A stretch of DNA of 64,000 nt from Thermoanaerobaculia bacterium. Lineage in GTDB: Bacteria; Acidobacteriota; Thermoanaerobaculia; Multivoradales; UBA5704. Position 1 is the stretch's first letter. The number at the start of each line of letters is the position of its first letter. A program made the position numbers and the translations under genes. Below are positions 1,377-59,718 of the stretch, piece after piece. The stretch is from positions 7,709-71,708 of the forward strand of contig JBIOUG010000136.1 in assembly GCA_044866775.1 (NCBI GenBank), read 5' to 3'. The notes below the pieces were generated by a model. That model saw only the letters and a list, made by a program, of their open reading frames with translations, did not search any database and was not told the origin of the DNA.

Positions 1377-3602
1377 CTAGCGCAGGTACCCGAGCGACCG
1401 CAGCTTGGTGATGTGGTTCCACTCGAGATAGGTGGCGCCGAGCGATTCGTCGCCGGCGAGAAAGCGGCGGCGGGCGGCGGCGCGGGCGGCGAGCTCGCGC
1501 TCGCCCCAGGCGCGCAGCGCGGCGGCGACCGCGGGCTCGGCGGCGGCGCGGTTGGCGGCCTCGCCCGGGTCGGCGGCGAGGCTGTAGAGCTCGAGCGGGA
1601 GCCCGGGCTGGCGCGGGACGATGAGCTTCCACGGCCCGCGGCGCACCGCCCAGCGCTCCGGACCGTGGAGGATGACGTCGGCCATGAGCGCCGGGCGCGG
1701 CAGCGGGCGGCCGGCGAGGCCGGCCGAGAGGTCGCTCCCCTGCGACGGCGGCGGCTCGACGCCGACGAGCTTGAGGAGGGTCGGGAAGAAGTCGGCGATC
1801 CGTACCGGCGCTTCGACCACGCCCGGCGGAAGCCCCGGCGCGCGCAAGATGCCGGGGACGTGCAGCAGCTCCTGGTAGTGCGTGTGGCCGTGGTCGGCAT
1901 TGGTCTCGTAGCCGCCCGCCTGTTCCTGCGGCAGGCGCGTCCAGAACTCCTCGCCGTGGTCGGAGAGGACAAGGAGCACGGTGTCCTCGGCCATGCCCAG
2001 CTCCTCGAGCCCGTCGAGGAAGCGCCCGACGGCGCGGTCGGTCGCCGCCACCTCGGCCCGGTAGAGCGCCTCGTGCCACCGCCGGTCGCGCGGCGGCGGG
2101 ATCGGGTTCTCCGGCCGGCGGTCGGCGGCGCAACCGAGCGGCCCCCGGTACGCGGGTAGCAGCCGGCGCGCGACGCGCGCGCAGTCCGCGGCCGGCGGCT
2201 CGTAAGGGTTGTGCGGATCGAAGAGGTGGAGGTAGAGGAAGAGCCGCCGCTCGTCGCCATAGCGCTCGAGCCGCGCCAGCGTCTCCTCGACCAGCACCCC
2301 CGCCCGCTCCTCGCGCGAGACGTACTCGTCGAACCCCTGCTGCAGCCCGAAGGCCGGGTTGACGTAGATGTTGTGGTAGACGCCGAGGTTGTAGAAGCCG
2401 GCGCCGCGCAGCGTCTCGGCGAGCGTCCGCGCGCCGCCGGACAGGCCGGTGGGAGCGAACTCGCCGAAGCGGCGACCCGCGCCGTGCGTCTGCGGCTCGA
2501 GGCCGGTCATCAGCGTCGCGACCGCGGGCAGAGTCCAGGGCGAGGGCGTCGACAGGTCGGCGAAGCGAATGCCTTCCCGGGCCAGCCGATCGAGGTTCGG
2601 CGTCAGCCCCGTGCGGTCCCCATAGGCGCCCACGACGTCGGCGCGCAACGTGTCGATCAGCAGCACGACCAGATGCGGCCCCGCCCGCCGCCCCGCCGCC
2701 ACGAGGACGGGATCGCCCCACAGCGCCACACCTTCGGGCAGCGGCCGCCCGCCCCGCCGCGCCTCCACCTCGAGCACCACCCGCCCGCCCGCCCGCGCCG
2801 CCGGCGGCAGCTCTTCGGCGACCCGCCGCCAGCCTGCCCGCTTCCCGCCGCCGCCGAGCCGCGTCTCGAACCACGGCCGCCGCGCGCCCCCGCTCTCGAC
2901 GAAGGCGCGGAAGGTCGCGGTCACCCCCGCCCGATCGAACTCCGGCACCAGCCCGAGCCGCGTCTCGAACCGCGCGCCGCGCGGCAGACCGCCGGGCAGG
3001 TCGATCGCAACCGAAGACAGCCCCGGCAGGGAGGGAAGACATTCCCCTTCGAGGCACATCAGCCGATAGGCGTCGGCGGCCGGCCACCCGCTCAATCCCA
3101 GGAGCTCCGCCTTCCCGCCCGTGACCGACAGCCGCAGCGCCGCCACCCTCCCGGTCCAGTACGGCTCGCGCCCCAGCTCGACGTCGTACGAGTGCTCCCG
3201 CCCATCCGCCAGCAGCGGAAACGAGAGCGTCCGATAGGGCAAGAATCCCCGATCCTGCGCCAGCCGCCAAGACAAGGTCGCCAGCCGCGCATCCCCCCGC
3301 GCCACCACCGTCACCCGCGCCACCCGCGCCGCCGACAGCTCCGCCGGAATCACCCGTGGCCGGCCATCGACCACCCCACCCGCCGGCAGCTCGACCACCC
3401 CCCCCGGCGGCGCTTTGATGAGATCGCCCATCCGGATCAGACACTGCGGTTCGCGCTGGCAGGCACTGAGGAAGAGGAGGCAGCTCAAGAAGAGAAGCCC
3501 CGGGACCGCCGCGCTCCGGGTGCGCTCCTCTCCGGGAACGGCGCGCGCTTCTGTTGCCTGCGGGATCTGAGGCGCGCGCCTCGGCTTCGCTCCGCGCGTC
3601 AT
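1377..3602 (-). CDS. sulfatase-like hydrolase/transferase (alkaline-phosphatase superfamily) lipoprotein with an N-terminal domain of unknown function
   Basis: I trimmed the start to the ATG at 3602 (MTRGAKP...). Lipobox-like LLFLSAC. VVLLIDTLRADVVGAYG...TPNLDRLAREGIRF...LVLSDHGEEF is a sulfatase-type core. The track ORF start at 3944 reads through REP repeats. Confidence 0.8.
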   Translation of the reverse strand: MTRGAKPRRAPQIPQATEARAVPGEERTRSAAVPGLLFLSCLLFLSACQREPQCLIRMGDLIKAPPGGVVELPAGGVVDGRPRVIPAELSAARVARVTVVARGDARLATLSWRLAQDRGFLPYRTLSFPLLADGREHSYDVELGREPYWTGRVAALRLSVTGGKAELLGLSGWPAADAYRLMCLEGECLPSLPGLSSVAIDLPGGLPRGARFETRLGLVPEFDRAGVTATFRAFVESGGARRPWFETRLGGGGKRAGWRRVAEELPPAARAGGRVVLEVEARRGGRPLPEGVALWGDPVLVAAGRRAGPHLVVLLIDTLRADVVGAYGDRTGLTPNLDRLAREGIRFADLSTPSPWTLPAVATLMTGLEPQTHGAGRRFGEFAPTGLSGGARTLAETLRGAGFYNLGVYHNIYVNPAFGLQQGFDEYVSREERAGVLVEETLARLERYGDERRLFLYLHLFDPHNPYEPPAADCARVARRLLPAYRGPLGCAADRRPENPIPPPRDRRWHEALYRAEVAATDRAVGRFLDGLEELGMAEDTVLLVLSDHGEEFWTRLPQEQAGGYETNADHGHTHYQELLHVPGILRAPGLPPGVVEAPVRIADFFPTLLKLVGVEPPPSQGSDLSAGLAGRPLPRPALMADVILHGPERWAVRRGPWKLIVPRQPGLPLELYSLAADPGEAANRAAAEPAVAAALRAWGERELAARAAARRRFLAGDESLGATYLEWNHITKLRSLGYLR

Positions 3603-3744
3603 CGTTCGTGGCCTTCGGCGTTCATTGCCAGGCGCTGCGCTCAGACGTCCCTCCGTGGAGCGCACCCGGAGCGCTACCGTCGTGGTACATCGCCCCCACC
3701 GGACTCGTTCTTCCCTCGGGGCCTGTGGAGGACTCAGGCTGGTC

Positions 3745-3778
3745 TCCGAAAACGCCCGGGACGTGGCCCGGGCGCTAC
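3745..3778 (+). repeat. REP-like 34-nt hairpin repeat (type 1, forward)
   Basis: TCCGAAAA-CGCCCGGG-ACGTGG-CCCGGGCG-CTAC; 8-bp stem, 6-nt loop. Confidence 0.9.
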
Positions 3779-3801
3779 AGGAACCCTGCGGTGGTTGTGA
3801 C

Positions 3802-3833
3802 GTAGCGCCCGGCCTACGTGCCGGGCGTTTTCG
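3802..3833 (-). repeat. REP-like hairpin repeat (type 2, inverted copy, paired with 3745..3778)
   Basis: GTAG-CGCCCGGC-CTACGT-GCCGGGCG-TTTTCG. The closing stem pair is swapped G:C to C:G relative to type 1. Confidence 0.9.
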
Positions 3834-4072
3834 CACAATGCTCAAGATGACATCGGCCCGTTTGTGTCCACAGACGGTAGCCCTCCGGCGTGCGCTCTCT
3901 GGAGGCACGTGTGAGCGAGCGCTGGCAAGCCCCCTCGCAGTCACGAGCGTGTTGGCGCGAAGCGAACCCGAGGCGGGCGCCTCAGATCAGAAGTCCTCAG
4001 AGCGCCCGCCGGTGCCGGAGGGGAGCGCACGTCGGAGGGCGGTGGTTGCTCGCACGCCGGGGATCACGGGAT

Positions 4073-6589: not shown

Positions 6590-9121
6590 ATGACCCCACG
6601 CTCGCGCCTCGTTACCGCACTCTCCGCCCTCGCCCTGCTGGCCCTCCTCGCCGCTCCGGCCCCGGCGGCCGCGGCCGACAAGCTCTCGCGCAAGGAACGC
6701 AAGGAGCTGGCCGCGACGGCGGCGAAGCTGCCGGAGAAGTACCGCGCCTGGTACGAAGAGGTGGATTACATCCTCACCGACGAGGAGCGGGCGGCCTTCC
6801 TCGCCCTCGAGAAGGACTACCAGCGCGACGCCTTCATCCAGCGCTTCTGGGCGGCGCGCGACCCCTTCCCGGACACGGCGCGCAACGAGTTCAAGGACCG
6901 CTGGAGCGAGCGCGTGGCCCTCGCGCGCTCGGAGTTCGGGGCGCTCGACGACGCGCGCGGCAAGATGCTGCTCACCAACGGGCCGCCGCTGGCGCGCATC
7001 GTCTCGACGTGCAACACCATCCTCTGGCCGGTCGAGGTCTGGTACTACCGCGGCAGCGAGACGGTGGGGTTCGAGTTCTTCCTCGTCTTCTACAAGCGCT
7101 GGGGAGCGGGGAAGTTCCGGCTCTGGGAGCCTTCCGAGGGGCTCGACGCCCTGTTCCAGGACGGCCAGCGAAGCGCGAACGTGCAGGCGATCTACGACGG
7201 CTGCATGGACGGCGACAAGCTCGCCGCCGGCATCGGCTGGGTGGCGCGGCAGGGCTTCCACTCCTACGCCGTCATCCTGTCGAAGGTCGAGACGCGGCCC
7301 GAGGCGCCGAAGGGCGAGTGGGTCTCGACCTTCAAGTCCTACTCGACCGACCTCGCCGAGGGCACGGCGACCTTCCCGGCCCGCGTCGCCCTCGAGTATC
7401 CCGGACGGCACCAGGCGCGCACGGTCGTGCAGGGGGTGGTCACCGTGCCGGTCTCCGAGGCGACGGCGGTCCAGCTCGGCGAGTTCCGCTCCTACAACTT
7501 CGTGCTCACCGGCGAGATGCTCCAGGGAGGGCAGCTCTTCGAGAGCTTCCGCTACAAGTTCGACTTCCCGGTCGAGGAGGTGACCGGCGAGTCGCTGGCG
7601 ATGATCTTCGAGCGCAGCCTGCGGCCCGGCGACTACACCCTGACGCTCAAGCTCGAGGACGTCAACGGCAAGCGCTTCTTCCGCGAGGAGAGGCAGCTCG
7701 CCGTGCCGCAGGTCGCGGGCGGGATGCCGCCGCTGCCGCCGGCCGACGCCGAGAGCGCGCGCCTCCTCGCCGAGGCCAACGCCGCGATCACGACCGGCGA
7801 CCGCACGATCCAGTTGATCGAGCCGCACGGCGACCTCCACACCGGCATGCTGCGCTTCGAGACCATGACGACCGGCACCGGCATCGAGAAGGTGACCTTC
7901 GAGCTCGACGGCAAGCCGCTCTTGACCAAGAAGAAGCCGCCCTACAGCGTCGAGCTCGACCTGGGGTCGCTGCCGCGCACCCACCTCCTCTCGGCGGTCG
8001 CCTTCGACGCCGCCGGCGCCGAGCTGGCGCGCGACGAGCTGACGTTGAACGCCGGCGGCCACCGCTTCGCGGTCGATCTCGTCGAGCCGCGGCGGGGCAA
8101 GCGCTACGAGAACAGCCTGCGCGCCGAGGCCGAGGTGCAGGTGCCGGAGGGGCAGGCGGTCGAGCGGGTCGAGTTCTACTTGAACGAGACGCTGATCGCG
8201 ACCCTCTACCAGGCGCCCTACGCGCAGCCCATCCTGCTGCCCAAGGATGCGGACCTCGCCTACGTGCGCGCCGTCGCCTACCTGGCCGACGGCAACTCGA
8301 CCGAGGACACGGTCTTCGTCAACGCGCCCGACTACCTCGACGAGCTGGCCATCGAGTTCGTCGAGCTCTACACGACGGTCGTGGACCGCCAGGGGCACCC
8401 GGTCGCGGGGCTCGGCAAGGGCGACTTCACGGTCGTCGAGGACGGGGTCAGGCAGGAGATCGCGCGCTTCGAGACGGTGAGCGACCGGCCCTACCACGCG
8501 GCGGTGCTGCTCGACGTTTCGGCGTCAATGGAGCCGGAGATGGAGCGCGCCCAGAACGCGGCGCTGCGCTTCTTCGAGCAGGCGGTGCGGCCCAAGGACC
8601 GGGCGGCGGTCATCACCTTCAACGACCGGCCGGCCCTCGGCGCCAAGTTCACCAGCGACCAGAAGTCGCTCGCCGCCGCCCTCGCCGGGCTCAAGGCCGA
8701 GCGCGGCACGTCGCTCTACGACAGCATCATCTTCAGCCTCTACTACTTCAACGGCGTCAAGGGGCAGAAGGCGGTGATCCTGCTCTCGGACGGCAAGGAC
8801 GAGTCGAGCCGCTTCACCTACGAGGACGCGCTCGAGTACGCGCGCCGGGCGGGGGTGACGGTCTACGCCATCGGCCTCGGCGAGGACGTGGACAAGAAGA
8901 AGCTCACCCGCCTCGCCGAGGAGACCGGCGGCCGCGGCTTCTTCCTGAAGGACGCCTCGCAGCTCGCCGCGATCTACACCACGATCCAGCAGGAGCTGCG
9001 CTCGCAGTACCTGGTGGCCTACCAGTCCACCAACACCACCGGCGACGACTTCCGCACCGTCGACGTCAAGCTCGCACGAGGCGGCCTCGAGGCCAAGACG
9101 ATGCGGGGGTATTACCCGTAG
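6590..9121 (+). CDS. secreted GWxTD-like N-terminal domain / C-terminal von Willebrand factor A (VWA) protein
   Basis: Signal peptide. N-terminal YILTDEERAAFLALEKDYQRDAFIQRFWAARDPFPDTARNE is GWxTD-family-like. The C-terminus has AAVLLDVSASM...TSLYDSI...ILLSDGKDESS...VTVYAIGLG (VWA MIDAS pattern). Confidence 0.8.
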   Translation: MTPRSRLVTALSALALLALLAAPAPAAAADKLSRKERKELAATAAKLPEKYRAWYEEVDYILTDEERAAFLALEKDYQRDAFIQRFWAARDPFPDTARNEFKDRWSERVALARSEFGALDDARGKMLLTNGPPLARIVSTCNTILWPVEVWYYRGSETVGFEFFLVFYKRWGAGKFRLWEPSEGLDALFQDGQRSANVQAIYDGCMDGDKLAAGIGWVARQGFHSYAVILSKVETRPEAPKGEWVSTFKSYSTDLAEGTATFPARVALEYPGRHQARTVVQGVVTVPVSEATAVQLGEFRSYNFVLTGEMLQGGQLFESFRYKFDFPVEEVTGESLAMIFERSLRPGDYTLTLKLEDVNGKRFFREERQLAVPQVAGGMPPLPPADAESARLLAEANAAITTGDRTIQLIEPHGDLHTGMLRFETMTTGTGIEKVTFELDGKPLLTKKKPPYSVELDLGSLPRTHLLSAVAFDAAGAELARDELTLNAGGHRFAVDLVEPRRGKRYENSLRAEAEVQVPEGQAVERVEFYLNETLIATLYQAPYAQPILLPKDADLAYVRAVAYLADGNSTEDTVFVNAPDYLDELAIEFVELYTTVVDRQGHPVAGLGKGDFTVVEDGVRQEIARFETVSDRPYHAAVLLDVSASMEPEMERAQNAALRFFEQAVRPKDRAAVITFNDRPALGAKFTSDQKSLAAALAGLKAERGTSLYDSIIFSLYYFNGVKGQKAVILLSDGKDESSRFTYEDALEYARRAGVTVYAIGLGEDVDKKKLTRLAEETGGRGFFLKDASQLAAIYTTIQQELRSQYLVAYQSTNTTGDDFRTVDVKLARGGLEAKTMRGYYP

Positions 9122-9233: not shown

Positions 9234-9298
9234 CACCATCGCCCGATTGTCGACCCAGGTGATGACGGGTGCCAGCCACCTTGCCCGGCTCACTGCTG

Positions 9299-11860
9299 AT
9301 GCGTAGGATCGGCGCGATGTCGGGGCCGTATCGCCGACTGCGCGCCGTTCTCTCCTACCTGTTCTTCTGCTCCGTCTGTGCGTTCGGGGCCGAGGCCACC
9401 GACCTCCCGCCGCGCTATCAGGCGTGGCTCGACGAGGTGGCGCCGCTCATCATGCCGGCCGAGCGCGAGGCATTCCTCGGGCTCTCCCAGGACTACCAGC
9501 GCGACGCCTTCATCCGCCGCTTCTGGCAGGTGCGCGACCCCTATCCCGAGACGGCGCGCAACGAGCTGGCCGAGCGCTGGGAGGAGCGGGTGCAGATGGT
9601 CCGCGAGCGCTTCCGCGACGCCGCCGACGAGCGCGCCAAGGTGATCCTCTTCCTCGGGCCGCCGGCGGACACCGTCGAGTCGCGCTGCCCCGAGGTCCTC
9701 ATGCCGCTCGAGATCTGGCGTTACGCCGAGGCCGCCGGCGTCAAGGGAAGCTTCAACCTGGTCTTCGCGCGCCCGGGCGGCAGCCGCTACCGGCTGTGGA
9801 TTCCGAGCGACGGCCTGCGGCCGCTCCTCGCCTTCGACTTCCGCGTCGACGTCACGGCCAGCGACCACGCGATCCTGCAGGCCATCGCCGGCCAGTGCAT
9901 GCGCGGCCAGGAGCTGGCGGGCCAGCTCCTCGGCGCCGCCGACTGGGGGCAGATCGAGTCGCACGTCCTGCCCAAGCCGAGCCAGGAGTGGCTGCGCACC
10001 TTCCTCGCCAAGTCGACCGACCTGCCGGCGGACGCCGCGCCGCTCGCCGCCCGCCTCGAGCTCGCCTTCCCCGCCCGCCGGCAGAGCCGCACGCTGGTCC
10101 AGGGAGTGCTCTCGGTGCCGCGCGCCGAGGCGCAGGCCGAGCGCCTCGGGACGGCCGGCATCTACACCTTCGTCCTCGACGGCGAGGTGCTGCGCAAGGG
10201 GGAGCTGTTCGAGAGCTTCCGCGTCAAGTTCACGCTGCCGGAGGCGGGCGCCGCCGGCGACAGCATCCCGCTCGTCTTCGAGCGCTCGCTCCGCCCCGGC
10301 GCCTACCGGCTGGTGGTGCGGCTCCACGACACCGCCTCGCAGCGCTACTTCCGCGAGGAGCGCGACCTCGAGGTGCCGGCGCTCGACCAGGTGGCGGCGG
10401 CGGCGCCCGGCGCGCCGAATCCAATGACCGCGCCGGCGCCCCTGATCAGCCCACCCCCCTCCCATCCACTGCTCGCCGAGGCCAACGCCGGGCTCGCCGG
10501 CGCCGACGCGCCGGCCGAGGGCGAGCAGTCGATCCGCATCCTGCCGCCGCCGTCGGGCCTCCTGACCGGACGGGCGCGGGTCGAGGCGATCGTCGCCGGC
10601 GACGGCGTGACGCGCGTGCGCTGGGACCTCGACGGCAAGCCGGTGATGAGCAAGAGGGGCGCGCCCTACAGCGTCGAGCTCGACCTCGGGCCCGACCCGC
10701 GTCTGCACCGCCTGGCGGCGGTGGCGCTCGGCGCCAAGGGCGAGGAGCTGGCGAGCGACGAGCTGCGCTTGAACGCCGGCCCCCACCGCTTCTCGCTGCG
10801 CCTGGTCGAGCCGCAGCCCGGGCGCACCTACCGCACGAGCCTCCGCGCCCAGGCCGAGGTCGAGGTGCCGGAGGGGGAGACGCTCGAGCGGGTCGAGATC
10901 TTCTTGAACGAGGACCGGATGGCGACCCTCTACCAGCCGCCGTTCGCGCAGCCGCTGGTGCTGCCGCAGGGGAACACGCTCTCCTACGTGCGCGCCGTCG
11001 CCTTCCTCGCCGACGGCAACTCGACCGAGGACGTGGTGCTGGTCAACGCCCCGGAGTACGGCACCGCGATCGACGTCCACATGGTGGAGCTCTACACCAC
11101 CGTCGTCGACCGCCGCGGCCGCCCGGTCGACGGCCTGGCGCGCGAGGAATTCACGGTGCTGGAGGACGGCGCCGAGCAGCGCCTTCACCGCTTCGAGCGG
11201 GTGACCGATCTGCCGATCTACGCCGGGGTGATGCTCGACACCTCGGCCTCCATGGCCGAGGAACTGCACGAGGCGGTGCGCGGCGCCCTGGCCTTCTTCG
11301 AGACCGTGATCCAGCCCAAGGACCGCGCCGCCGTCTTCACCTTCAGCGACCAGCCGCAGCTCGCCGTGCGCTTCACCAATGACGCCACCATCCTGGCCGG
11401 CGGCCTCGCCGGGCTCGCCGCCGAGGGCAACACCGCGCTCTACGACAGCCTGATCTTCGCCCTCCACTACTTCGGCGGCATCACCGGCAAGCGGGCGCTC
11501 GTGGTGCTCACCGACGGCGTCGACGAAGGGAGCCGCTACGACTTCCAGAACGCCCTCGAGTACGCCCGCCGCAGCGGCGTCGCCCTCTACACGGTCGGCA
11601 TCGACATCGGCACCAAGGAGGCCGACGCGCGGATGAAGATGGAGCGGCTGGCGAGCGAGACCGGCGGCCGCTACTTCTTCATCGACCAGGCGAGCGACCT
11701 GAAGCGCGTCTACGCCGAGATCGAGGGCGACCTGCGCACCCAGTACCTGCTCGCCTACCAGTCGGCGAGCGAGGCGGCGGCGGACAAGTACCGCACGGTC
11801 GAGGTGCGGGTGAAGCGGCCCGGGCTCGAGGCGCGCACGCTGCGGGGGTACTACCCGTGA
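9299..11860 (+). CDS. paralogous GWxTD-like / VWA domain protein
   Basis: It has the same architecture and colinear motifs as 6590..9121 (YQRDAFIRRFWQVRDPYPETARNE; AGVMLDTSASM; LVVLTDGVDEGS; ALYTVGIDIG). The start is uncertain: ATG at 9299 or 9317. The track start at 9269 is also possible. Confidence 0.8.
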   Translation: MRRIGAMSGPYRRLRAVLSYLFFCSVCAFGAEATDLPPRYQAWLDEVAPLIMPAEREAFLGLSQDYQRDAFIRRFWQVRDPYPETARNELAERWEERVQMVRERFRDAADERAKVILFLGPPADTVESRCPEVLMPLEIWRYAEAAGVKGSFNLVFARPGGSRYRLWIPSDGLRPLLAFDFRVDVTASDHAILQAIAGQCMRGQELAGQLLGAADWGQIESHVLPKPSQEWLRTFLAKSTDLPADAAPLAARLELAFPARRQSRTLVQGVLSVPRAEAQAERLGTAGIYTFVLDGEVLRKGELFESFRVKFTLPEAGAAGDSIPLVFERSLRPGAYRLVVRLHDTASQRYFREERDLEVPALDQVAAAAPGAPNPMTAPAPLISPPPSHPLLAEANAGLAGADAPAEGEQSIRILPPPSGLLTGRARVEAIVAGDGVTRVRWDLDGKPVMSKRGAPYSVELDLGPDPRLHRLAAVALGAKGEELASDELRLNAGPHRFSLRLVEPQPGRTYRTSLRAQAEVEVPEGETLERVEIFLNEDRMATLYQPPFAQPLVLPQGNTLSYVRAVAFLADGNSTEDVVLVNAPEYGTAIDVHMVELYTTVVDRRGRPVDGLAREEFTVLEDGAEQRLHRFERVTDLPIYAGVMLDTSASMAEELHEAVRGALAFFETVIQPKDRAAVFTFSDQPQLAVRFTNDATILAGGLAGLAAEGNTALYDSLIFALHYFGGITGKRALVVLTDGVDEGSRYDFQNALEYARRSGVALYTVGIDIGTKEADARMKMERLASETGGRYFFIDQASDLKRVYAEIEGDLRTQYLLAYQSASEAAADKYRTVEVRVKRPGLEARTLRGYYP

Positions 11861-11869
11861 GCCCACGGA

Positions 11870-11895
11870 CGTCCGGGATGTGGCCCGGGCGGCAC
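11870..11895 (+). repeat. degenerate REP-like copy
   Basis: CGTCCGGGATGTGGCCCGGGCGGCAC lies immediately 5' of an intact copy. Confidence 0.5.
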
Positions 11896-11897
11896 GA

Positions 11898-11931
11898 TCC
11901 GAAAACGCCCGGGACGTGGCCCGGGCGCTAC
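11898..11931 (+). repeat. REP-like hairpin repeat (type 1)
   Basis: TCCGAAAACGCCCGGGACGTGGCCCGGGCGCTAC. Confidence 0.9.
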
Positions 11932-11957
11932 GAGCACTGAGCCAGCTTCCGTCTCTC

Positions 11958-12554
11958 GTGCTCGCGTCGGGATCGCCGCGGCGGCGCGAGCTGCTGGCTG
12001 GGCTGGGGCTCGCGTTCACCGTCCGCCCGGTGGACCTCGACGAAACGCCGCTCCCGGGCGAGGAGCCGGGGGCGACCGTCCGCCGCCTCGCCGAAGCCAA
12101 GGCCGCGGCCGGCGCCCGGCCGGGCGAGCTGGCGCTGGGCGCCGACACGCTGGTGGTGCTCGACGAGGCGGTGCTCGGCAAGCCGCGCGACGCCGAGGAG
12201 GCGGTGGAGATGCTGCTGCGGATCGCCGGGCGCGAGCACACGGTGCTGACGGGGGTGGCGCTCTGCGAGCGGCTGGGCAAGGGGGATGGAGACGTGCGCC
12301 GCGCCGCGACGCTCGAGACCTCGCGGGTGACGATGGCTCCTCTCACCCGCGAGCAGGCAGCCTGGTACGTCGCCACCGGCGAGCCGCTCGACAAGGCCGG
12401 GTCCTACGCCATCCAGGGGCTCGGCGCCCTGTACGTGGAAGCGGTCTACGGCAACTACACCAACGTCGTCGGCCTGCCGCTGCCGGCGACAGCTCGCCTG
12501 TTCCGCGAGCTGGGCTACGACGTCATGGACTTCGCTGCGCCCAGGATGACTTAG
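11958..12554 (+). CDS. maf: Maf-like nucleoside-triphosphate pyrophosphatase
   Basis: I moved the start to the GTG at 11958 (VLASGSPRRRELL...). GADTLVVLD...LGKP...SYAIQG match Maf. The track start at 11880 lies inside the REP. Confidence 0.85.
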   Translation: MLASGSPRRRELLAGLGLAFTVRPVDLDETPLPGEEPGATVRRLAEAKAAAGARPGELALGADTLVVLDEAVLGKPRDAEEAVEMLLRIAGREHTVLTGVALCERLGKGDGDVRRAATLETSRVTMAPLTREQAAWYVATGEPLDKAGSYAIQGLGALYVEAVYGNYTNVVGLPLPATARLFRELGYDVMDFAAPRMT

Positions 12555-12781
12555 CTAGTCCTTCGACGTCGCCGACGCCCGTATGGACCGTGCAGCCGCG
12601 TGGGGTGCCGGACCGCAGGGCGCGGAACCGGCGCGCGCCCCCTCGCCTGGCAACACCGTTGTGATGCACTCCGCGTAGCGGAGTGCGAACCGAAGGCCAC
12701 CACGCCCTGCTATCAGCACCGCGAAGCGGCGTGCCTGTGGAGCGCCCTGCGGACCGGCACCCCACGCGGCGACTATCCGTC
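12551..12781. repeat. ~230-nt structured repeat, copy 1 (MITE-like element or structured RNA)
   Basis: Shares conserved blocks with 17150..17379. A 26-nt terminal stem (12585-12610 pairs with 12735-12760, 25/26) encloses the internal hairpin 12656-12676. Confidence 0.8.
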
Positions 12782-12798
12782 CCGCGCGGGGGGCCCCC

Positions 12799-13209
12799 TC
12801 ACCCGACCTTGATCGCGTCCCCCAGCGAGTCGAGCGAGAAGTTGGCCATGATCTGGTGGCCGTTGAAGTCGAGGACCCGCAGGTCCTCCTCCCCCTCGAG
12901 GTCGCGGGCGATGCTGTCATAGGAGTGGCTGTAGCGCTCGCGCACCACGCCGAGGTCCACCTCGTAGGCGATGAACTTGTCGATCCCCTTGTAGCGGAGC
13001 TTCTCGATCAGCCGGCCGTCGGTGATCTGGGGATAGGTCGAGAGGGCGAGGATGGGGCCGGTGCCGGTGAAGAGGAGATAGGCGCGGGTCGGTCCGTTCA
13101 CCGGCACGGACGCTACCCTCCGCTCTCGCGCAGTGTCAAGAAACGGACGGCTTCTCTCCTGGTACCGTTTTGCTACTTCGATCAAGCCCCCTGCCGCTTC
13201 GCGGCCCAC
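12799..13209 (-). CDS. hypothetical cytoplasmic protein
   Basis: The composition is protein-like, not Arg/Pro junk: YLLFTGTGPILALSTYPQITDGRLIEKLRYKGIDKFIAYEVDLG.... The start is uncertain: 13209 overlaps the upstream gene by 74 nt, and the alternative GTG at 13107 does not. Confidence 0.6.
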   Translation of the reverse strand: MGREAAGGLIEVAKRYQERSRPFLDTARERRVASVPVNGPTRAYLLFTGTGPILALSTYPQITDGRLIEKLRYKGIDKFIAYEVDLGVVRERYSHSYDSIARDLEGEEDLRVLDFNGHQIMANFSLDSLGDAIKVG

Positions 13210-16200
13210 CCTGACCGGCTTCGCCGGTCAGCGAGTCGGCGATGTGGAGGAAATCCGCGTCGACGGCGAGGAAGGCGTCCACCAGCTCGGGGTCGAAGTG
13301 GCGGCCGCGGTCGGCGGCGATCCGCCGCACCGCCTCGTCGTGCGCCAGCGGCGGCTTGTAGGGGCGCCGGCTGATGATCGCGTCGTAGGCGTCGACCAGG
13401 GCCACGATGCGGGCGGCGAGCGGGATCGCGGCGCCGGCGAGGCCGCGCGGGTAGCCCGAGCCGTCCCAGCGCTCGTGGTGGCTGTAGGCGATCTCCATCG
13501 CCAGGGCGAGGAAGCTCCGGCCGCCGTGGCGCTCGATGACCGAGCGCAGGACGTCGCCGCCGACCGTCGTGTGCTCGCGCATCAGCGCCTGCTCGCCGGG
13601 GTCGAGCCCGCCCGGCTTGCGCAGCACGGCGTCGGGGGTCGCGACCTTGCCGATGTCGTGCAGCGGGCTCGAGCGGCCGAGCTGCTCGATGAAGGCTCCG
13701 TCGACGCCGCGGTGGCCGCGGGCGCGCAGCTCCTCGGCCAGGCGCTGGCTGTAGGCGGCGATCCGCTCGAGGTGCTGGCCGGTCGTGCCGTCGCGCAGCT
13801 CGGCGAGCTTGGCGAGGGTGAAGACCGCGACGTCGCGGGCCTCGCGCAGCTCGCGCTGGCGCGCGCGCAGCACCCGCATGCGCAGCTTGTAGGCGCCGCC
13901 GCCCACCACCACCAGGGTCACCGCGCCGAGGCCCAGGAACCAGACGGTCTGATGGAACCGCGGCGGCAGGCGGAGCGCGACGCTCGCCCCCGCCGGGCTC
14001 CAGACGCCGTCCTCGTTGGCGGCGATCACCCGGAAGTCGTAGCGCCCCGGCGGCAGGTTCATGTAATAGGCCACGCGCCGCGCGCCGGCCTCCTGCCAGT
14101 CGCGGTCGAAGCCGTCGAGCCGGTAGCGGAAGCGCACCGCCCCGGGCACGGCGAGGCCGATGCCGGTGTAGGCGATCTCGACCTCGCCCGCGCCGACCGG
14201 CAGGCGCACCGGCGGACCGAGCGGCAGCGGCTCGCCGTCGGCCACGACCTGCTCGACGTGGACGAGAGGCGGCCGCGCGTTGGCGCGCAGCCGCGCGGGA
14301 TCGACGACCACCGCGCCCTGCACGGTGGGGAACCAGAGCCGGCCGTCGCGGCCCCGCCAGCCGGCCGGCTGGCCGCCGCCGTTGCACTCGGCGCTGCGCA
14401 TGCCGTCGCGCACCCCGAAGACGCGCAGCGACAGCGGCCGCCGCCCGGCCGCGGCGGCCGCGAGCTCGGCGCGCCGCACCCGCACGACGCCGCGGTTGGT
14501 GGTGAGCCAGAGGTAGCCGCGGCCGTCGTCGAGAATGCGTGAGACGACGCCGTTCGGCAGCCCCTCGCGGCTACCCCAGCGGGTGAAGACGCCGCGCTCC
14601 AGCCGCGCCAGGCCGCCGCCGTAGGTGCCGATCCAGAGCGCGCCGCCGGCGTCCTCGTGGAGGGCGCGCACGTGGTCGTGCGGCAGGCCGTCGGCGGCGG
14701 TGTAGCGCGTGAAGCGGCCGGCGCGGAAGCGGCCGAGGCCGCGGCGGGTGCCGATCCAGAGGCCGCCCGCGCGGGCGTCGGCGAGGGCCAGCACCTCGTC
14801 GTCCACCAAGCCGTCGGCCGTGGTGTAGAGGCGGAAGTGCTCGCCTTCGAGGCGCGCCAGCCCGGCGATCGTCCCCACCCAGAGGACGCCCGCGCGGTCG
14901 CGCAGGATGGCCCGGCTGACGACGTGCGGCAGCCCGCGCGCGATGCCGACCTCCTGCCAGCGACCGCCGGCGTGGCGCCAGAGCCCGTTGGCGCCGGCCC
15001 ATAGGCTGCCGTCGCGATCGGCGTAGAGCGCGGTGACGCAGCCGAGGGCGCGGCGATCGAGGGGCTCGCGCACGAAGCCGCCGGCGGCGAGACGGGCGAG
15101 GCCGCCGCACAGGGCGCCGGCCCAGACGGTGCCCGCGGCGTCCTCGGTGATGGGCACGACGGCCGCCTCCGGCAGCCCCTCGGCCGTGCCGTAGCTGACG
15201 AAGCTGCCGGCGCGCAGCCGCACCAGCCCGGCGCCGTCGGTGCCGACCCAGAGGTTCCCCTCGCGGTCCTCGTAGACGGACCGCAGACCCGTGCTCCCGA
15301 GCCCCGCATGGCGCTCGACCACGCCGCCGGCGCCGGCGCGGAGACGCTGGAGGCCGCCAGCGGTCCACCACAGGCTGCCGTCACGATCGGCGACGAGGGC
15401 GCCCGTGACCTCGTTGCGCGCGGCGAGCGTCCCGCCGGCGGCGCGGAAGCCCCGGCCCTCGCCCTCCCATCGCGCCAGGCCGCCGTGGGTGCTCGCCCAG
15501 AGCGCACCGGAACGATCGGTGGCGAAGGCGTAGACCCACGCGTGCGGCAGCCCGCTCTCGCGGCCGTAGGCCGTGAAGCGGCCACCGCGCAGGCGCGCCG
15601 CGCCGTTGCGCGTGCCGATCCAGAGCTCGCCGGGCGTGCGCCCGGCGGCGATCGCCAGGACGACGTCGTCGGGAAGACCGTCGGCGCGCGTGTAGACCCG
15701 CGGCCGGCCGGGCGGCGCGAACTGGACGAGCCCGGCGTTCGTGCCCACCCAGAGGCGGCCCGCCGTGTCCTCCCTGAGCGCGTAGACGCGGTCGTCCGGC
15801 AGCCCGTCGCGCGTGGTGAAGGTCGTGAAGGCGTCCCCGTCCTTGCGGATCAGCCCGCCGTCCTCGCTGCCGATCCACAGCCGGCCCGCGCGGTCCTCGT
15901 AGAGCGCCAGGAGCCGGCTGCTGGCGAAGCCGGGCGTCGAAGCGTCGTAGACGGTGAAGCGGACGCCGTCGAAGCGCGCCAGACCGCCGAACGTCGCGAG
16001 CCAGAGATAGCCGTCGCGGGTCTGCAGGATCGAGGTGACGGAGCTCTGCGGCAGACCGTCCTCGGTCGTCCAGGTGTCGCTGACGTATTGCGCCAGCGAG
16101 AGCGTCGGATCGAGCCCGGCCGCCGGCCGGGCGAGGAGCACCCCGGCGAGGGCGAGAACCAGGAGGGCGGCGCGCCGCCCGGCGGGCCGCTCCTCCTGCG

Positions 16201-16231
16201 AAAGGCGGCGAACGGCCGAGGCAGCGCTCAC
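13136..16231 (-). CDS. sensor protein: periplasmic beta-propeller repeats (Reg_prop) + Y_Y_Y domain + TM + HD-GYP phosphodiesterase domain
   Basis: N-terminal signal/TM, then many repeats of the type DG-LW-GT--GL. YRLDGFD--W (Y_Y_Y). A TM segment WFLGLGAVTLVVVGGGAY. The C-terminus has HDIGKV...HHERWDGSGYPRGL (HD-GYP). Confidence 0.85.
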   Translation of the reverse strand: MSAASAVRRLSQEERPAGRRAALLVLALAGVLLARPAAGLDPTLSLAQYVSDTWTTEDGLPQSSVTSILQTRDGYLWLATFGGLARFDGVRFTVYDASTPGFASSRLLALYEDRAGRLWIGSEDGGLIRKDGDAFTTFTTRDGLPDDRVYALREDTAGRLWVGTNAGLVQFAPPGRPRVYTRADGLPDDVVLAIAAGRTPGELWIGTRNGAARLRGGRFTAYGRESGLPHAWVYAFATDRSGALWASTHGGLARWEGEGRGFRAAGGTLAARNEVTGALVADRDGSLWWTAGGLQRLRAGAGGVVERHAGLGSTGLRSVYEDREGNLWVGTDGAGLVRLRAGSFVSYGTAEGLPEAAVVPITEDAAGTVWAGALCGGLARLAAGGFVREPLDRRALGCVTALYADRDGSLWAGANGLWRHAGGRWQEVGIARGLPHVVSRAILRDRAGVLWVGTIAGLARLEGEHFRLYTTADGLVDDEVLALADARAGGLWIGTRRGLGRFRAGRFTRYTAADGLPHDHVRALHEDAGGALWIGTYGGGLARLERGVFTRWGSREGLPNGVVSRILDDGRGYLWLTTNRGVVRVRRAELAAAAAGRRPLSLRVFGVRDGMRSAECNGGGQPAGWRGRDGRLWFPTVQGAVVVDPARLRANARPPLVHVEQVVADGEPLPLGPPVRLPVGAGEVEIAYTGIGLAVPGAVRFRYRLDGFDRDWQEAGARRVAYYMNLPPGRYDFRVIAANEDGVWSPAGASVALRLPPRFHQTVWFLGLGAVTLVVVGGGAYKLRMRVLRARQRELREARDVAVFTLAKLAELRDGTTGQHLERIAAYSQRLAEELRARGHRGVDGAFIEQLGRSSPLHDIGKVATPDAVLRKPGGLDPGEQALMREHTTVGGDVLRSVIERHGGRSFLALAMEIAYSHHERWDGSGYPRGLAGAAIPLAARIVALVDAYDAIISRRPYKPPLAHDEAVRRIAADRGRHFDPELVDAFLAVDADFLHIADSLTGEAGQGGPRSGRGLDRSSKTVPGEKPSVS

Positions 16232-16332
16232 ACAGCTCCAGGGACGACGACCTGGCAGAAAGAAGAGTGCGACCGATTGTAGCCTAGGCGACCGCCGGTG
16301 GAGCCGAGGCGCTTGCCGTAGAGTCCGCCCGC

Positions 16333-17067
16333 ATGGAACCGGCCTGGATGCCCCCCGCGGTCGTGCTGGTGCGCCCGCGCGAGGAGGGCAACGTCGGCGC
16401 CGCCGCCCGCGCCATGGCCAACATGGGCCTCGGCCGCCTGCTCCTCGTCGAGCCCGCCGCCCCCCTCGGCAACGTCGCCCGCGCCTTCGCCGTCGGCGCC
16501 CGCCACATCCTCGACGCCGCCGAGCGCCACCCCACCCTCCCCGCCGCCCTCGCCCCCTTCCGCCGCGTCGTGGCGACCACCTCCACCCGCGACCGCCACC
16601 TCTCGGTGCCCCTCCTCCTCCCCCGCGACCTCCCCGCCCTCCTGGCCCACGACCCGAACACCCCCACCGCCCTGGTCTTCGGCCCCGAAGTCGGCGGCCT
16701 CACCAACGACGACCTCTCCCTCGCCGGCGCCATAGTCCACATCCCCTGCGCCCCCGAGCAGCCCACCCTCAACCTGGCCCAGGCCGTCCTCCTCCTGGCC
16801 TACGAGCTCCACACGAGCCGCCTCGACCCAAGCGCTCCATCTCCCTCGGAGCCCCCCGCCACCGCCGGCGACCTGGACGGCCTCTTCACCCAGCTCACCG
16901 ACCTGCTCACCACCGCCGGCTTCGCCCGCGACGACACCTTCCCCGGCGTCCTCCGCGACCTCCGCCAGCTAGCCGCCCGCTCCCAAGCCACCGAGCGCGA
17001 AGTCACCATCCTCCGCGGCATCTGCCGGCGGGTGCACCACGCGCTGTCGCGAAAAACTTCTGGGTAG
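16333..17067 (+). CDS. SpoU/TrmH-family RNA 2'-O-methyltransferase (TrmJ-like)
   Basis: VVLVRPREEGNVGAAARAMANMG...LVFGPEVGGLTNDDL...HIPCAPEQPTLNLAQAVLLLAYEL. Confidence 0.8.
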   Translation: MEPAWMPPAVVLVRPREEGNVGAAARAMANMGLGRLLLVEPAAPLGNVARAFAVGARHILDAAERHPTLPAALAPFRRVVATTSTRDRHLSVPLLLPRDLPALLAHDPNTPTALVFGPEVGGLTNDDLSLAGAIVHIPCAPEQPTLNLAQAVLLLAYELHTSRLDPSAPSPSEPPATAGDLDGLFTQLTDLLTTAGFARDDTFPGVLRDLRQLAARSQATEREVTILRGICRRVHHALSRKTSG

Positions 17068-17095
17068 GAAGACGTGTGAAGGACTTCGGCCGCTC

Positions 17096-17129
17096 TCCGA
17101 AAACGCCCGGGACGTAGCCCGGGCGCTAC
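17096..17129 (+). repeat. REP-like hairpin repeat (type 1)
   Basis: TCCGAAAACGCCCGGGACGTAGCCCGGGCGCTAC. Confidence 0.9.
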
Positions 17130-17149
17130 GGTAAGGATGACAAGCGGTC

Positions 17150-17379
17150 TTTCGGACGTCGCCGGAGCTATCCGGACCGTGCAGCCGCGTGGGGTGCCGG
17201 TCCGCAGGGAGCGACCGGAGCGCGCCCCCCACAGCCACCACGACCGTCGTGATGCACGCCGCGCCAGCGGCGTGCGAACCGCAGTCCTCCACCCCCTCCT
17301 ACCAGCACCGCGAAGCGGCGCGACTTGGAGCGACCGGAGGACCGGCACCCCACGCGGCGACTGTCGGTGCCGCGCGGGC
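17150..17379. repeat. ~230-nt structured repeat, copy 2
   Basis: A perfect 19-bp terminal stem (17184-17202 pairs with 17340-17358). The internal hairpin 17254-17275 carries a compensatory change relative to copy 1. Confidence 0.8.
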
Positions 17380-17401
17380 TCTTCTTCCTCTTGTCTTTGT
17401 C

Positions 17402-17926
17402 TTAGTCGGGTTTGGTATACCCGCGGATGGCCATCTGGTACAGCAGCGCCGACATGCACCGCCGCGTGACCTTGCGCACGCTCGACGGGTGATACCCCAT
17501 CTCCCCCGCCACCTCGTCCGAGTCATACCCCAAGCTGTACCGCAGCCGCAGCAGCTTCTGGCACCGCACCGGCAACGCCTGGAGCAGCAGGTTCAAGTCC
17601 CATCGCAGCTCCGCCTTCTCCTGCGGCGCCGACTGCGGCTCCGACAACAACTCCAGGATGGTCGCGTCCACCGCGTTGTAGAGACTCGCCCGCCGCTTCC
17701 GCCAGTACACCACGCAGCGGTTGCGCAGCGTGATCAGCAGCCAGGCCTCGGGATCGTTGATCTGCTCCCACTTCTGGACCGTCGACATCAAGGCCTCCTG
17801 GATGAGGTCCTCGGCGTCGTGCGCCGGCACCCGATAGCGGGCGAGCACCTGCTTCAGCCGCGGGCGCACCCTGGGCAGCAGCTCCTCCAGCGGCTCCCGG
17901 GCCATCGGCTGTCCAGGAACGGCCAT
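17402..17926 (-). CDS. RNA polymerase ECF-type sigma-70 family factor
   Basis: DAEDLIQEALMSTVQKW (region 2) and LPVRCQKLLRLRYSLGYDSDEVAGEMGYHPSSVRKVTRRCMSAL (region 4 HTH). Confidence 0.85.
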   Translation of the reverse strand: MAVPGQPMAREPLEELLPRVRPRLKQVLARYRVPAHDAEDLIQEALMSTVQKWEQINDPEAWLLITLRNRCVVYWRKRRASLYNAVDATILELLSEPQSAPQEKAELRWDLNLLLQALPVRCQKLLRLRYSLGYDSDEVAGEMGYHPSSVRKVTRRCMSALLYQMAIRGYTKPD

Positions 17927-27694: not shown

Positions 27695-27718
27695 ATCCCC
27701 CGCAAGGTCATCCTAAGC

Positions 27719-59237: not shown

Positions 59238-59489
59238 GGGGCCGAGGCCGGAGCCGCGTGGGTCGGCCCGTCGGAGCCGGGGGCGAGCGCCGCGATGAGG
59301 CAAGCGACCGCTCCGGCGATCGGGGCGACCGCCTCGCGGCACGGGGACGGCGCCTCGAAGGTTGGGGACACCGCCTCGGAGCTGCGCGGCGGCGCCTCGC
59401 AGCTCGGGGACGGCGCCTCGGAGCTCGGTGCAGGCGCCTCGGATGCCGGGGACCGCCGCTCGCAACCGCGGGCCGGCGCCTCGGAAGCT
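59238..59489 (+). repeat. tandem array of 21-nt units (left arm), consensus GGGGAC-GGCGCC-TCG-GAGCTC
   Basis: GGGGAC occurs at 59343, 59364, 59406 and 59448. In-phase degenerate units sit at 59322, 59385, 59427 and 59469, with weaker ones back to 59238. Confidence 0.85.
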
Positions 59490-59508
59490 GTTCCCCGCCG
59501 GACGGAGC

Positions 59509-59718
59509 TCCGGGGCCGCCCCTGTCCCCAGGTTCCGAGCCCCTGTCCCCAGGTTCGGAGCGCCTGTCCCCGAGCTGCGAGCGCGTTGCAACGAGGTTCG
59601 CTCCCGCGTCCCCACGCCTCGAGGCGTGCGCCCCAGGCGCCGACCTGTCGTCCCCAAGCTCCGAGCCGCTGTCCCCGATCTTCGAGAAGCCGTAATGCAG
59701 ATCCGACGGGCTGTCCCC
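59509..59718 (-). repeat. tandem array of the same 21-nt unit in reverse-complement orientation (right arm)
   Basis: GTCCCC ends at 59529, 59550, 59571, 59613, 59655, 59676 and 59718, all multiples of 21 apart. Confidence 0.85.

Follow-up and report, generated by a model that had tools for sequence, protein, structure and literature searches.

A Two-Copy Imperfect Palindrome Inserted at Convergent Gene Ends in a Thermoanaerobaculia Genome

The window analyzed here, a stretch of 64 kb of DNA from a Thermoanaerobaculia bacterium, contains two copies of a repeat that, on balance, is probably a lineage-specific insertion of the non-autonomous MITE, ERIC or "small mobile sequence" kind, that is, a non-coding, imperfect palindrome of ~245 bp. 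The first-pass annotation had left the choice between a MITE and a structured RNA open. The evidence presented below leans to an insertion of mobile origin, although it stops short of a strict MITE diagnosis, and the designation as a MITE proper is not established. Judged from the two copies, only two points appear unusual for such an element, namely the octamer AGGATGAC at the left flank without a target duplication, and the block-wise conservation of the sequence.

Results and Discussion

The two copies and their genomic context

The repeat copies and their neighbors are the following (window coordinates, strand in parentheses):

11880-12554 (+), maf (Pfam Maf), upstream flank of copy 1; its C-terminus is AAPRMT-stop, compared to RA-stop, RKR-stop and LG-stop in the relatives
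12543-12790 (+), repeat copy 1, ~248 nt, located between the stops of maf and of the small minus-strand ORF; delimited by alignment, blastn and covariance model R1
12799-13209 (-), small conserved ORF with no Pfam match, the stop of which is the downstream flank of copy 1; TCACCCGACCTTGATCG is identical in the relative L139
16333-17067 (+), SpoU-family RNA methylase gene, upstream flank of copy 2
17098-17141 (+), GTAG-type REP with core 17098-17130 and tail GTAAGGATGAC; copy 2 starts at or within the tail
17134-17378 (+), repeat copy 2, ~245 nt, between the REP 3' of the SpoU methylase gene and the ECF sigma stop
17402-17926 (-), ECF sigma-70 family gene, downstream flank of copy 2

The copies are in direct orientation, and their homology opens with the common AGGATGAC and closes with the common CCGCGCGGG. 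They are 81-82% identical over 238-253 nt according to blastn (E ~1e-58), and the identity of the columns in the MAFFT alignment is 86%. The two-copy repeat claimed by the first-pass annotation is thus real and far above chance, and every one of the conserved blocks listed there is present in the copies. The ends proposed for it (12551-12781 and 17150-17379) have to be revised, as the homology is longer, with the limits given above. Conservation peaks in the stem arms and falls inside; the longest identical runs are 23, 20, and 18 nt, and the clustering of identity is mild (P ~0.03). The GC content is ~75%. Only these two copies are found within the window by blastn and by covariance model R1, which scores them at 199.7 bits (copy 1) and 187.7 bits (copy 2). 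No copy was found elsewhere in the public collections searched, so the mobility of the repeat rests on two insertions in one genome.

The gene context described previously is reproduced, with copy 1 placed between maf and the small ORF, and copy 2, together with the REP, between the SpoU methylase and ECF sigma genes. Both copies sit at convergent gene ends and have the same orientation relative to the flanking genes. The last codons of maf and its stop come from the first bases of copy 1. The repeat itself is non-coding, because the reading frames of its ORFs differ between copy 1 and copy 2; the repeat-derived ORFs are absent from a collection of 15 billion proteins. With ~245 nt and neither a transposase nor a conserved ORF, the repeat has the size and the coding status of a MITE.

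Empty sites in related genomes

The comparison set consists of five related Thermoanaerobaculia contigs (L139, L140, L142, L143, and L144; ~95 kb), so that species or genera are compared with each other and not strains. The order maf, small ORF, SpoU methylase, ECF sigma is kept in all five. An HD-GYP regulator gene is inserted between the small ORF and the SpoU methylase gene in the window as compared to the relatives.

The site of copy 1 is empty in L139, L140, L142, and L144, where the convergent stops of maf and the small ORF are separated by 0-13 nt. In L139, the interval from GGACTTC to TCACCCGACC is 21 nt long, compared to 264 nt in the window. At the site of copy 2, the SpoU methylase and sigma genes overlap or are 8 nt apart in L142 and L144, while the junction in L139 is a 221-nt spacer unrelated to the repeat. 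Searches of the ~95 kb with blastn and covariance model R1 did not find the repeat in any of the five relatives, L143 included. Since no relative contains the repeat, this sequence comparison shows that both copies have been inserted in a lineage-specific manner into the gene order that the relatives conserve. Missing from their junctions, the repeat has the appearance of an ordinary small insertion element and not of a conserved RNA gene.

The long stem and the relation to known small mobile elements

Each copy contains a GC-rich long stem, the arms of which are located as follows:

12595-12623 (+), copy 1, 5' arm, pairing with 12742-12770 in 28/29 positions, with an A-A mismatch at 12612/12753
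12742-12770 (+), copy 1, 3' arm, partner of 12595-12623
17184-17203 (+), copy 2, 5' arm, pairing with 17339-17358 in 20/20 positions
17339-17358 (+), copy 2, 3' arm, partner of 17184-17203

The first-pass annotation had correctly recognized a long stem with a single A-A mismatch in copy 1 and a perfect one in copy 2, and also that the mismatched position corresponds to a T-A pair in the latter. Its coordinates for copy 1 (12585-12610 with 12735-12760, 25/26 paired) are shifted by ~10 nt, and the stem of copy 2 is one pair longer than the 19 nt assigned to it (17184-17202 with 17340-17358). Across the 29-nt span of the copy 1 stem, copy 2 has only 25/29 pairs, and the inner 9 bp of the copy 1 stem are gone in copy 2 through uncompensated changes.

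The inverted repeats (20-29 bp) are subterminal, as the common sequence continues for ~52 nt beyond the left arm and for 20 nt beyond the right one. The parts outside the arms pair imperfectly and differently in the two copies. The stem arm sequence does not occur again in the window. Among the ~45 ORFs of the window, there is no parent IS with matching ends and no transposase domain. Target-site duplications, which the first-pass annotation had proposed to look for, were searched at both copies with no consistent outcome, there being no direct repeat of at least 4 nt at equivalent boundaries of the two. The strongest candidate pair, GTCCTT/GACCTT, had to be discarded, since TCACCCGACCTT belongs to the ancestral sequence.

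In prokaryotes, MITEs are described as small non-coding sequences of intergenic regions, the transcripts of which fold stably and the direct repeats of which decay as the element ages (PMC10969869). The repeat resembles the MITEs described there, such as the Correia/NEMIS elements of Neisseria and QMITE2 of Coxiella, in being small, non-coding, and intergenic, in its inverted repeats of 20-29 bp, in the predicted transcript with one long stable stem-loop, and in being an insertion relative to relatives. It differs from them in lacking a target-site duplication, in the subterminal position of its inverted repeats, and in a sequence that is GC-rich (~75%) where theirs is AT-rich; the window has no parent IS, and two copies are seen in 64 kb. 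ERIC, RU-1, and RU-2 are imperfect palindromes of 100-250 bp in transcribed intergenic regions, which diverge internally while the hairpin is kept and which are presumed to affect mRNA 3' ends. The repeat is likewise an intergenic imperfect palindrome with internal divergence and a retained hairpin, but it has no sequence similarity to ERIC or to RU-1 and RU-2 (YPAL) and belongs to the phylum Acidobacteriota, not to the enterobacteria. These enterobacterial elements are known as "small mobile sequences" (PMC2229807, PMC2759123).

If the repeat is a non-autonomous mobile element, its copies would derive from a master element through the action in trans of an enzyme encoded outside the window. 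Both copies follow the octamer AGGATGAC and lack a target-site duplication, which hints at an insertion that would be sequence-targeted and duplication-free, unlike the classical DDE cut-and-paste. The convergent 3' ends may be neutral landing sites, which would allow the repeat to persist there. Read-through transcripts from either flank would contain the long stem, which could fold on either strand, and the folded stem may act as a 3' stabilizer or a read-through barrier, like REP, ERIC, and Correia elements.

Internal hairpins and the structured-RNA alternative

We have also considered that the repeat is a lineage-specific family of structured non-coding RNA, either sRNA paralogues or a 3'-UTR element, in which the arms and two internal hairpins, B and C, would be functional. 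The hairpins are the following:

12666-12686 (+), copy 1, internal hairpin B, GCACTCCGC-GTA-GCGGAGTGC, 9 bp
17254-17275 (+), copy 2, internal hairpin B, GCACGCCGC-GCCA-GCGGCGTGC, 9 bp; its T-A to G-C change is the single clean compensatory one
12714-12731 (+), copy 1, hairpin C, invariant block CAGCACCGCGAAGCGGCG, CCGC-GAA-GCGG
17303-17320 (+), copy 2, hairpin C, invariant block CAGCACCGCGAAGCGGCG, same as in copy 1

This alternative draws on the predicted folding, which beats dinucleotide shuffles for both copies and both strands (z -3.3 to -5.2), on the compensatory change in hairpin B and the T-A pair that replaces the A-A mismatch of the long stem, on the mildly clustered identity, and on the common orientation of the two copies relative to the flanking genes. 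The sequences of hairpin B and its T-A to G-C double change are as first described. What had been called textbook covariation, however, amounts to a single pair. Copy 2 breaks 19/66 pairs of the predicted fold of copy 1, and it has lost the inner part of the long stem. With the copy 1 fold as reference, substitutions affect 24/132 paired columns and 10/51 unpaired ones, so that the paired columns are not depleted in substitutions. Conservation of the structure between the copies is weak. In a quasi-palindrome, moreover, a single compensatory pair can come from a template-switch mutation. Parts of the sequence may be under some constraint, since identity is clustered into blocks and one hairpin carries a compensatory change.

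The comparison with Rfam, Acidobacteria motifs included, which had also been proposed in the first-pass annotation, gave no matching covariance model. In Rfam 15, nothing reaches a gathering score, and searches with the copies alone at E<=10 return only sub-threshold noise, the top hit being MIR1437, the hairpin of a plant miRNA precursor, with 27.5 bits where the gathering score is 168. The repeat is similar to Rfam structured RNAs in having a GC-rich multi-hairpin fold of ~180 nt with a long closing stem, and differs in matching no model. A simple motif scan found neither a sigma-70-like promoter nor an intrinsic terminator in the repeat, with the reservation that acidobacterial promoters may differ. 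Considering also that the repeat is missing from the orthologous junctions and from the ~95 kb of relatives' DNA, we regard a structured RNA as an unlikely explanation.

The octamer AGGATGAC and the REP system

The region of the window contains nine GTAG-type REPs, 33-nt repeats that fit a 20-40 bp palindrome with a GTAG head; GTAG-tagged REP superfamilies have been described (PMC3733652). Like the repeat, these REPs are missing in the relatives. The same region contains a hairpin of ~440 nt that is built around a REP doublet.

The repeat could in principle be a part of this REP system, either as a BIME-like mosaic or as a single-stranded DNA hairpin moved by a REP-associated or IS200/IS605-type HUH (Y1) transposase, landing 3' of AGGATGAC with no duplication. 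The octamer immediately precedes both repeat copies (n=2) and forms the tail of the REPs at 17098 (+) and 27718 (-); no repeat follows the tail of the latter, which could be an unoccupied target. The octamer occurs 7 times in the window, where 1.2 occurrences are expected, although several of them lie in coding sequence and other causes may apply. As a target motif, it is represented by two insertion sites only. Copy 2 adjoins a REP, and the absence of a target-site duplication fits as well.

Compared to REPs and BIMEs with a GTAG head and a RAYT (PMC3733652), the repeat is likewise palindromic, located at gene ends, devoid of a duplication, and abutting a GTAG-type REP. It is, however, ~6 times longer than a REP, its complex core of ~118 nt is not palindromic, a GTAG or CGTC head is missing, and the window has no RAYT/Y1 transposase gene. 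Another possible relative is provided by the palindrome-associated transposable elements (PATEs) derived from IS200/IS605, which insert 3' of a short motif with no target-site duplication. The repeat shares with PATEs the lack of a duplication and the location of both copies 3' of the same short motif (n=2). Its arms, however, pair with each other instead of forming a separate subterminal hairpin at each end, and no TnpA or TnpB gene is found nearby. Membership in the REP system is therefore considered doubtful.

A similarly tentative and rather improbable view is that the repeat is a domesticated mobile hairpin with selected blocks (the arms, GTGATGCAC...GTGCGAACC around hairpin B, and CAGCACCGCGAAGCGGCG). 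It would then serve either as a lineage-specific structured RNA at convergent gene ends, acting as a barrier to read-through in both directions or as a 3'-derived sRNA, or as the structure recognized by a new transposition system, one directed to AGGATGAC, free of duplication and tied to the GTAG REPs.

Least probable of all is a single non-transpositional duplication, in which recombination or template switching carried a pre-existing intergenic sequence from one site to the other, at a distance of 4.6 kb, after which the copies diverged with no mobility of their own: the two known copies are close and directly oriented, the 8-nt microhomology AGGATGAC is common to their left edges, and the inserted HD-GYP regulator gene is another rearrangement in the same interval, but one de novo arrival or more must still be assumed, since neither site holds the repeat in any of the five relatives, and a local copy would account less well than a propagating family for a divergence of 18% in which the arms are perfectly conserved.

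Conclusions

The reading of the repeat as a small mobile element opens no long-standing question. It matters for annotation, as the insertion alters the last codons of maf and repeats of this sort break assemblies. Scans for structured RNAs may return false positives from such repeats, because strongly folding repeats mimic RNA genes. A possible practical use of the repeat is strain typing. If the reading is correct, the two copies would represent an unclassified family of small palindromic repeats in the Thermoanaerobaculia, a class of acidobacteria that is uncultured and little studied and from which hardly any mobile repeats have been described so far.

Two Copies of the Repeat

The two copies claimed in the first-pass annotation are present as described, within window 12300-13000 and 16900-17600. 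The limits given there were too narrow, as the homology extends from a shared AGGATGAC (12543 in copy 1, 17134 in copy 2) to a shared CCGCGCGGG (12790 and 17378, respectively). The copies show 86% column identity over ~250 columns in the MAFFT alignment and 81-82% identity across 238-253 nt by blastn (E ~1e-58), with three 1-nt indels between them. No further copy in the 64-kb window is found by pattern, blastn, or covariance-model searches.

Order of features around the two copies (genes by Pfam)
11880-12554 (+): maf
12543-12790: copy 1
12799-13209 (-): small ORF without Pfam match
13136-16231 (-): Reg_prop/Y_Y_Y/HD-GYP regulator
SpoU-family methylase (+)
17134-17378: copy 2
ECF sigma factor (-)

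Long stems of the two copies
12595-12623 with 12742-12770: copy 1, 28/29 pairs, one A-A mismatch
17184-17203 with 17339-17358: copy 2, 20/20 pairs, perfect

When taken over the 29-nt span of copy 1, the copy 2 stem has 25/29 pairs. The copy 1 stem with its single A-A mismatch had been recognized before, at coordinates ~10 nt off. The folding of both copies, on both strands, beats that of dinucleotide shuffles (z -3.3 to -5.2).

The longest form of the maf ORF has 224 aa, the Maf proteins of relatives having 195-221 aa, and a REP at 11900-11932 falls inside its 5' extension; this form is probably over-extended at the 5' end.

Empty Sites in Relatives

Where named, the Maf homologues belong to MAGs of Thermoanaerobaculia or Acidobacteriota, and the closest non-identical one has 83% identity. 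Five loci, ~95 kb in total, were chosen by Maf homologues at 73-83% identity (L139, L140, L142, L143, and L144). The order VWA genes, maf(+), ~100-aa ORF(-) is kept in 5/5 of them, SpoU(+) comes next in L139, L140, L142, and L144, and the ECF sigma gene(-) is found in L139, L142, L143, and L144. From the maf stop to the small-ORF stop there are 0-13 nt in L139, L140, L142, and L144. At the copy 1 site, L139 reads GGACTTC-21 nt-TCACCCGACCTTGATCG, compared to GGACTTC-264 nt-TCACCCGACCTTGATCG in the window, and the inserted copy 1 supplies the last six maf codons (AAPRMT* vs RA*, RKR*, and LG* in relatives). At the copy 2 junction, L142 has SpoU overlapping sigma, and L144 leaves 8 nt between the two genes; L139 has 221 nt of unrelated sequence there, including a 42-aa ORF. 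L143 carries another insertion after maf, a 180-aa ORF with no similarity to the element. Neither blastn nor CM R1, the covariance model of the element, finds a copy in the ~95 kb of the five loci. With the gene order kept and the element missing, both copies thus represent insertions specific to the source lineage. A composite transposon bounded by direct copies is rejected, since the small ORF and SpoU between the copies are ancestral and syntenic in relatives.

The small ORF encodes a ~100-aa protein, and the Thermoanaerobaculia relatives keep it in its place between maf and SpoU.

Orthologues of the small ORF
L139: 7407-7709
L140: 10602-10913
L142: 10599-10907
L144: 10656-10964

The HD-GYP regulator, of c-di-GMP phosphodiesterase type, separates the small ORF from SpoU and is missing there in 5/5 relatives; its closest homologue, at 57% identity, has a different gene context. 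It is a second lineage-specific insertion within the same 5-kb interval as the element. Upstream, tandem paralogous VWA/Big_7 genes at 6590-9121 and 9269-11860, a pair also seen in relatives, account for repeats D1, D3, D4, and D12 (2724 nt apart, 68-75% DNA identity).

Conservation of the Fold

RNAalifold, run on the two copies only, gives one robust compensatory pair, located in the small internal hairpin B (copy 1 12666-12686; copy 2 17254-17275), where the T-A to G-C double change reported earlier is indeed seen. The remaining pairs with both sides changed are in weak, strand-specific helices. The MFE fold of each copy was also scored for the effect of the other copy, which avoids the circularity of a consensus fold. 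The copy 1 (+) fold has 66 pairs, 44 of which are unchanged in copy 2, 1 compensated, 2 half-compensated, and 19 broken. The "textbook covariation" of the first-pass annotation amounts to the one hairpin B pair, as against 19/66 broken ones. Four changes, of which three affect the right arm, abolish the inner 9 bp of the copy 1 long stem in copy 2. Differing columns amount to 24/132 among paired and 10/51 among unpaired positions (18% vs 20%), and therefore substitutions are not depleted in stems. The identity is mildly clustered, with the longest three identical runs being 23, 20, and 18 nt (P ~0.03 for 34 differing columns placed randomly).

Common to both copies are a 20-bp core stem and hairpins B and C, nearly all as identical sequence. 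That these shared parts might represent an RNA structure under selection is not demonstrated by the two sequences; they are equally expected as ends or motifs retained by a propagating element. A lineage-specific structured RNA, for which the stable folding and the hairpin B pair could speak and which would have to accommodate the broken pairs, is considered unlikely.

Rfam 15 yields zero matches at gathering score in the whole window, and at E<=10 the element region or the copies alone return noise only, the top match being a plant miRNA-precursor hairpin (27.5 bits vs a threshold of 168). The Rfam comparison suggested earlier hence places the element in no family, and 6S RNA is rejected along with the other Rfam families. 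ARAGORN finds neither a tRNA nor a tmRNA, and both are rejected. A simple scan of 12300-17700 detects no sigma-70-like promoter or intrinsic terminator, and a sigma-54-like motif read by eye in copy 1 (TGGCAA-N5-TTGT) was discarded, as it is not kept in copy 2.

A protein-coding gene is rejected on the grounds that the reading frames differ between the copies, which is due to the three indels. None of the 16 candidate element ORFs is present in a collection of 15 billion proteins by exact look-up. A DGR template/variable repeat pair is also rejected, the differences not being adenine-specific and the repeats lying outside any coding target.

Boundaries and REPs

No direct repeat of at least 4 nt, as expected for a target-site duplication (TSD), is found at equivalent boundaries of both copies. 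The candidate pair GTCCTT (left) and GACCTT (right) of copy 1 was rejected, because TCACCCGACCTT is ancestral and identical in L139. The octamer AGGATGAC precedes both copies, and before copy 2 it forms the tail of a REP of the GTAG type. The REP at 27718(-) likewise carries it as a tail, with no element behind it. In all, the window has 7 occurrences of the octamer (1.2 expected), several of them in coding sequence.

Sites of AGGATGAC (three at REP or element boundaries)
12543, 17134, 27707(-), 29022, 1669, 7271(-), 54609

Sites of the GTAG-type REP
3747, 3801, 5189, 6537, 9162, 9201, 11900, 17098, 27718

This pattern, based on two sites, is compatible with a sequence-targeted, duplication-free insertion, or with AGGATGAC being the element's own left end. 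A targeted element linked to REP/RAYT or HUH functions would fit the first option and the REP tail before copy 2, and the tailed REP without an element could be an unoccupied target, but we regard it as improbable: no transposase, integrase, or RAYT is found by Pfam among the ~45 window ORFs scanned, which are housekeeping, regulatory, or unannotated (window GC 71.6%). A third, degenerate copy beside the REP at 27707 was rejected, the alignment covering coding sequence only. The occurrence at 29022 lies where a kynureninase-like gene ends, and there forms part of a small hairpin, cttcgct-CAGGATGAC-agcgaag.

The GTAG-type REPs share a 33-nt core, CGAAAACGCCCGGGACGTAGCCCGGGCGCTACG, and two pairs are inverted (BIME-like). 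The family is absent from L139-L142 and is therefore, like the element, specific to the source lineage. Two of its members form an inverted doublet (3747-3779 / 3801-3833) at the centre of a ~440-nt intergenic, near-perfect giant hairpin at 3555-3995, whose outer arms, 3564-3610 and 3942-3988, measure 47 nt each (MFE -283 kcal/mol, z = -13.2 vs shuffles). This palindrome is far stronger than that of the element, and the two have no sequence similarity. Another inverted repeat, at 59396-59581, has 58-nt arms, 71% complementary and 70 nt apart, in which short units resembling GGCGCCTCGGAGCTCGG and CCTGTCCCCAGGTTC recur; no ORF of this region has a Pfam annotation.

Search for Copies Elsewhere

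A three-block internal pattern gives 9 chance matches in unrelated taxa of a genome-contig collection, none homologous; the source genome itself is also missed, which probably reflects an overly strict pattern or a collection lacking the species. Among the matches listed for a 17-nt arm in metagenome contigs (at least 120 stretches), all are single-arm chance matches by blastn and CM, a result uninformative on absence. Viral contigs (pattern scans) and phages and plasmids (blastn) give chance matches or none. Zero matches were scored for the six-frame translation of both copies against 5.8 billion proteins, a query so long and so low in complexity that it may have swamped the candidates. The 57% identity of the closest HD-GYP homologue implies that the source genome has no close relatives in the databases, and the lack of copies in public data is therefore as much a matter of sampling as of rarity.

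Two short, independent Logan contigs of SRR30692710 (L010 and L145), the only such contigs found, match the sigma and SpoU genes of the window exactly. Their ends fall in the right arm of copy 2 (window 17348) and at the REP (window 17131), respectively, a weak hint that these sequences occur more than once in the sample; breaks in coverage could produce such ends as well. A one-off local duplication, with which the count of two in the window would agree, appears to us less probable still than the structured RNA or the REP-linked element.

Nature of the Element

The best-supported reading is that of a lineage-specific palindromic interspersed repeat, i.e., a small non-autonomous insertion element, similar in its mode of working to MITEs, ERIC, and Correia elements. 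Prokaryotic MITEs are small, non-coding, and mostly intergenic, with terminal inverted repeats (TIRs) and direct repeats that fade with age (PMC10969869). In the present element, the inverted repeats are subterminal, both copies lack a TSD, no parent IS was found in the window, and two copies are seen there; formal MITE membership is for these reasons not established. Relative to the choice left by the first-pass annotation, a MITE or a structured RNA, the interpretation shifts towards a mobile or palindromic repeat of an ordinary kind.

MITE transcripts fold into stable stem-loops that can serve as terminators or sRNA sources (PMC10969869). In the inserted repeat, the 20-29 bp GC stem would form in transcripts that run on from either of the convergent genes, and it may then act as a 3' stabiliser or as a barrier to read-through.
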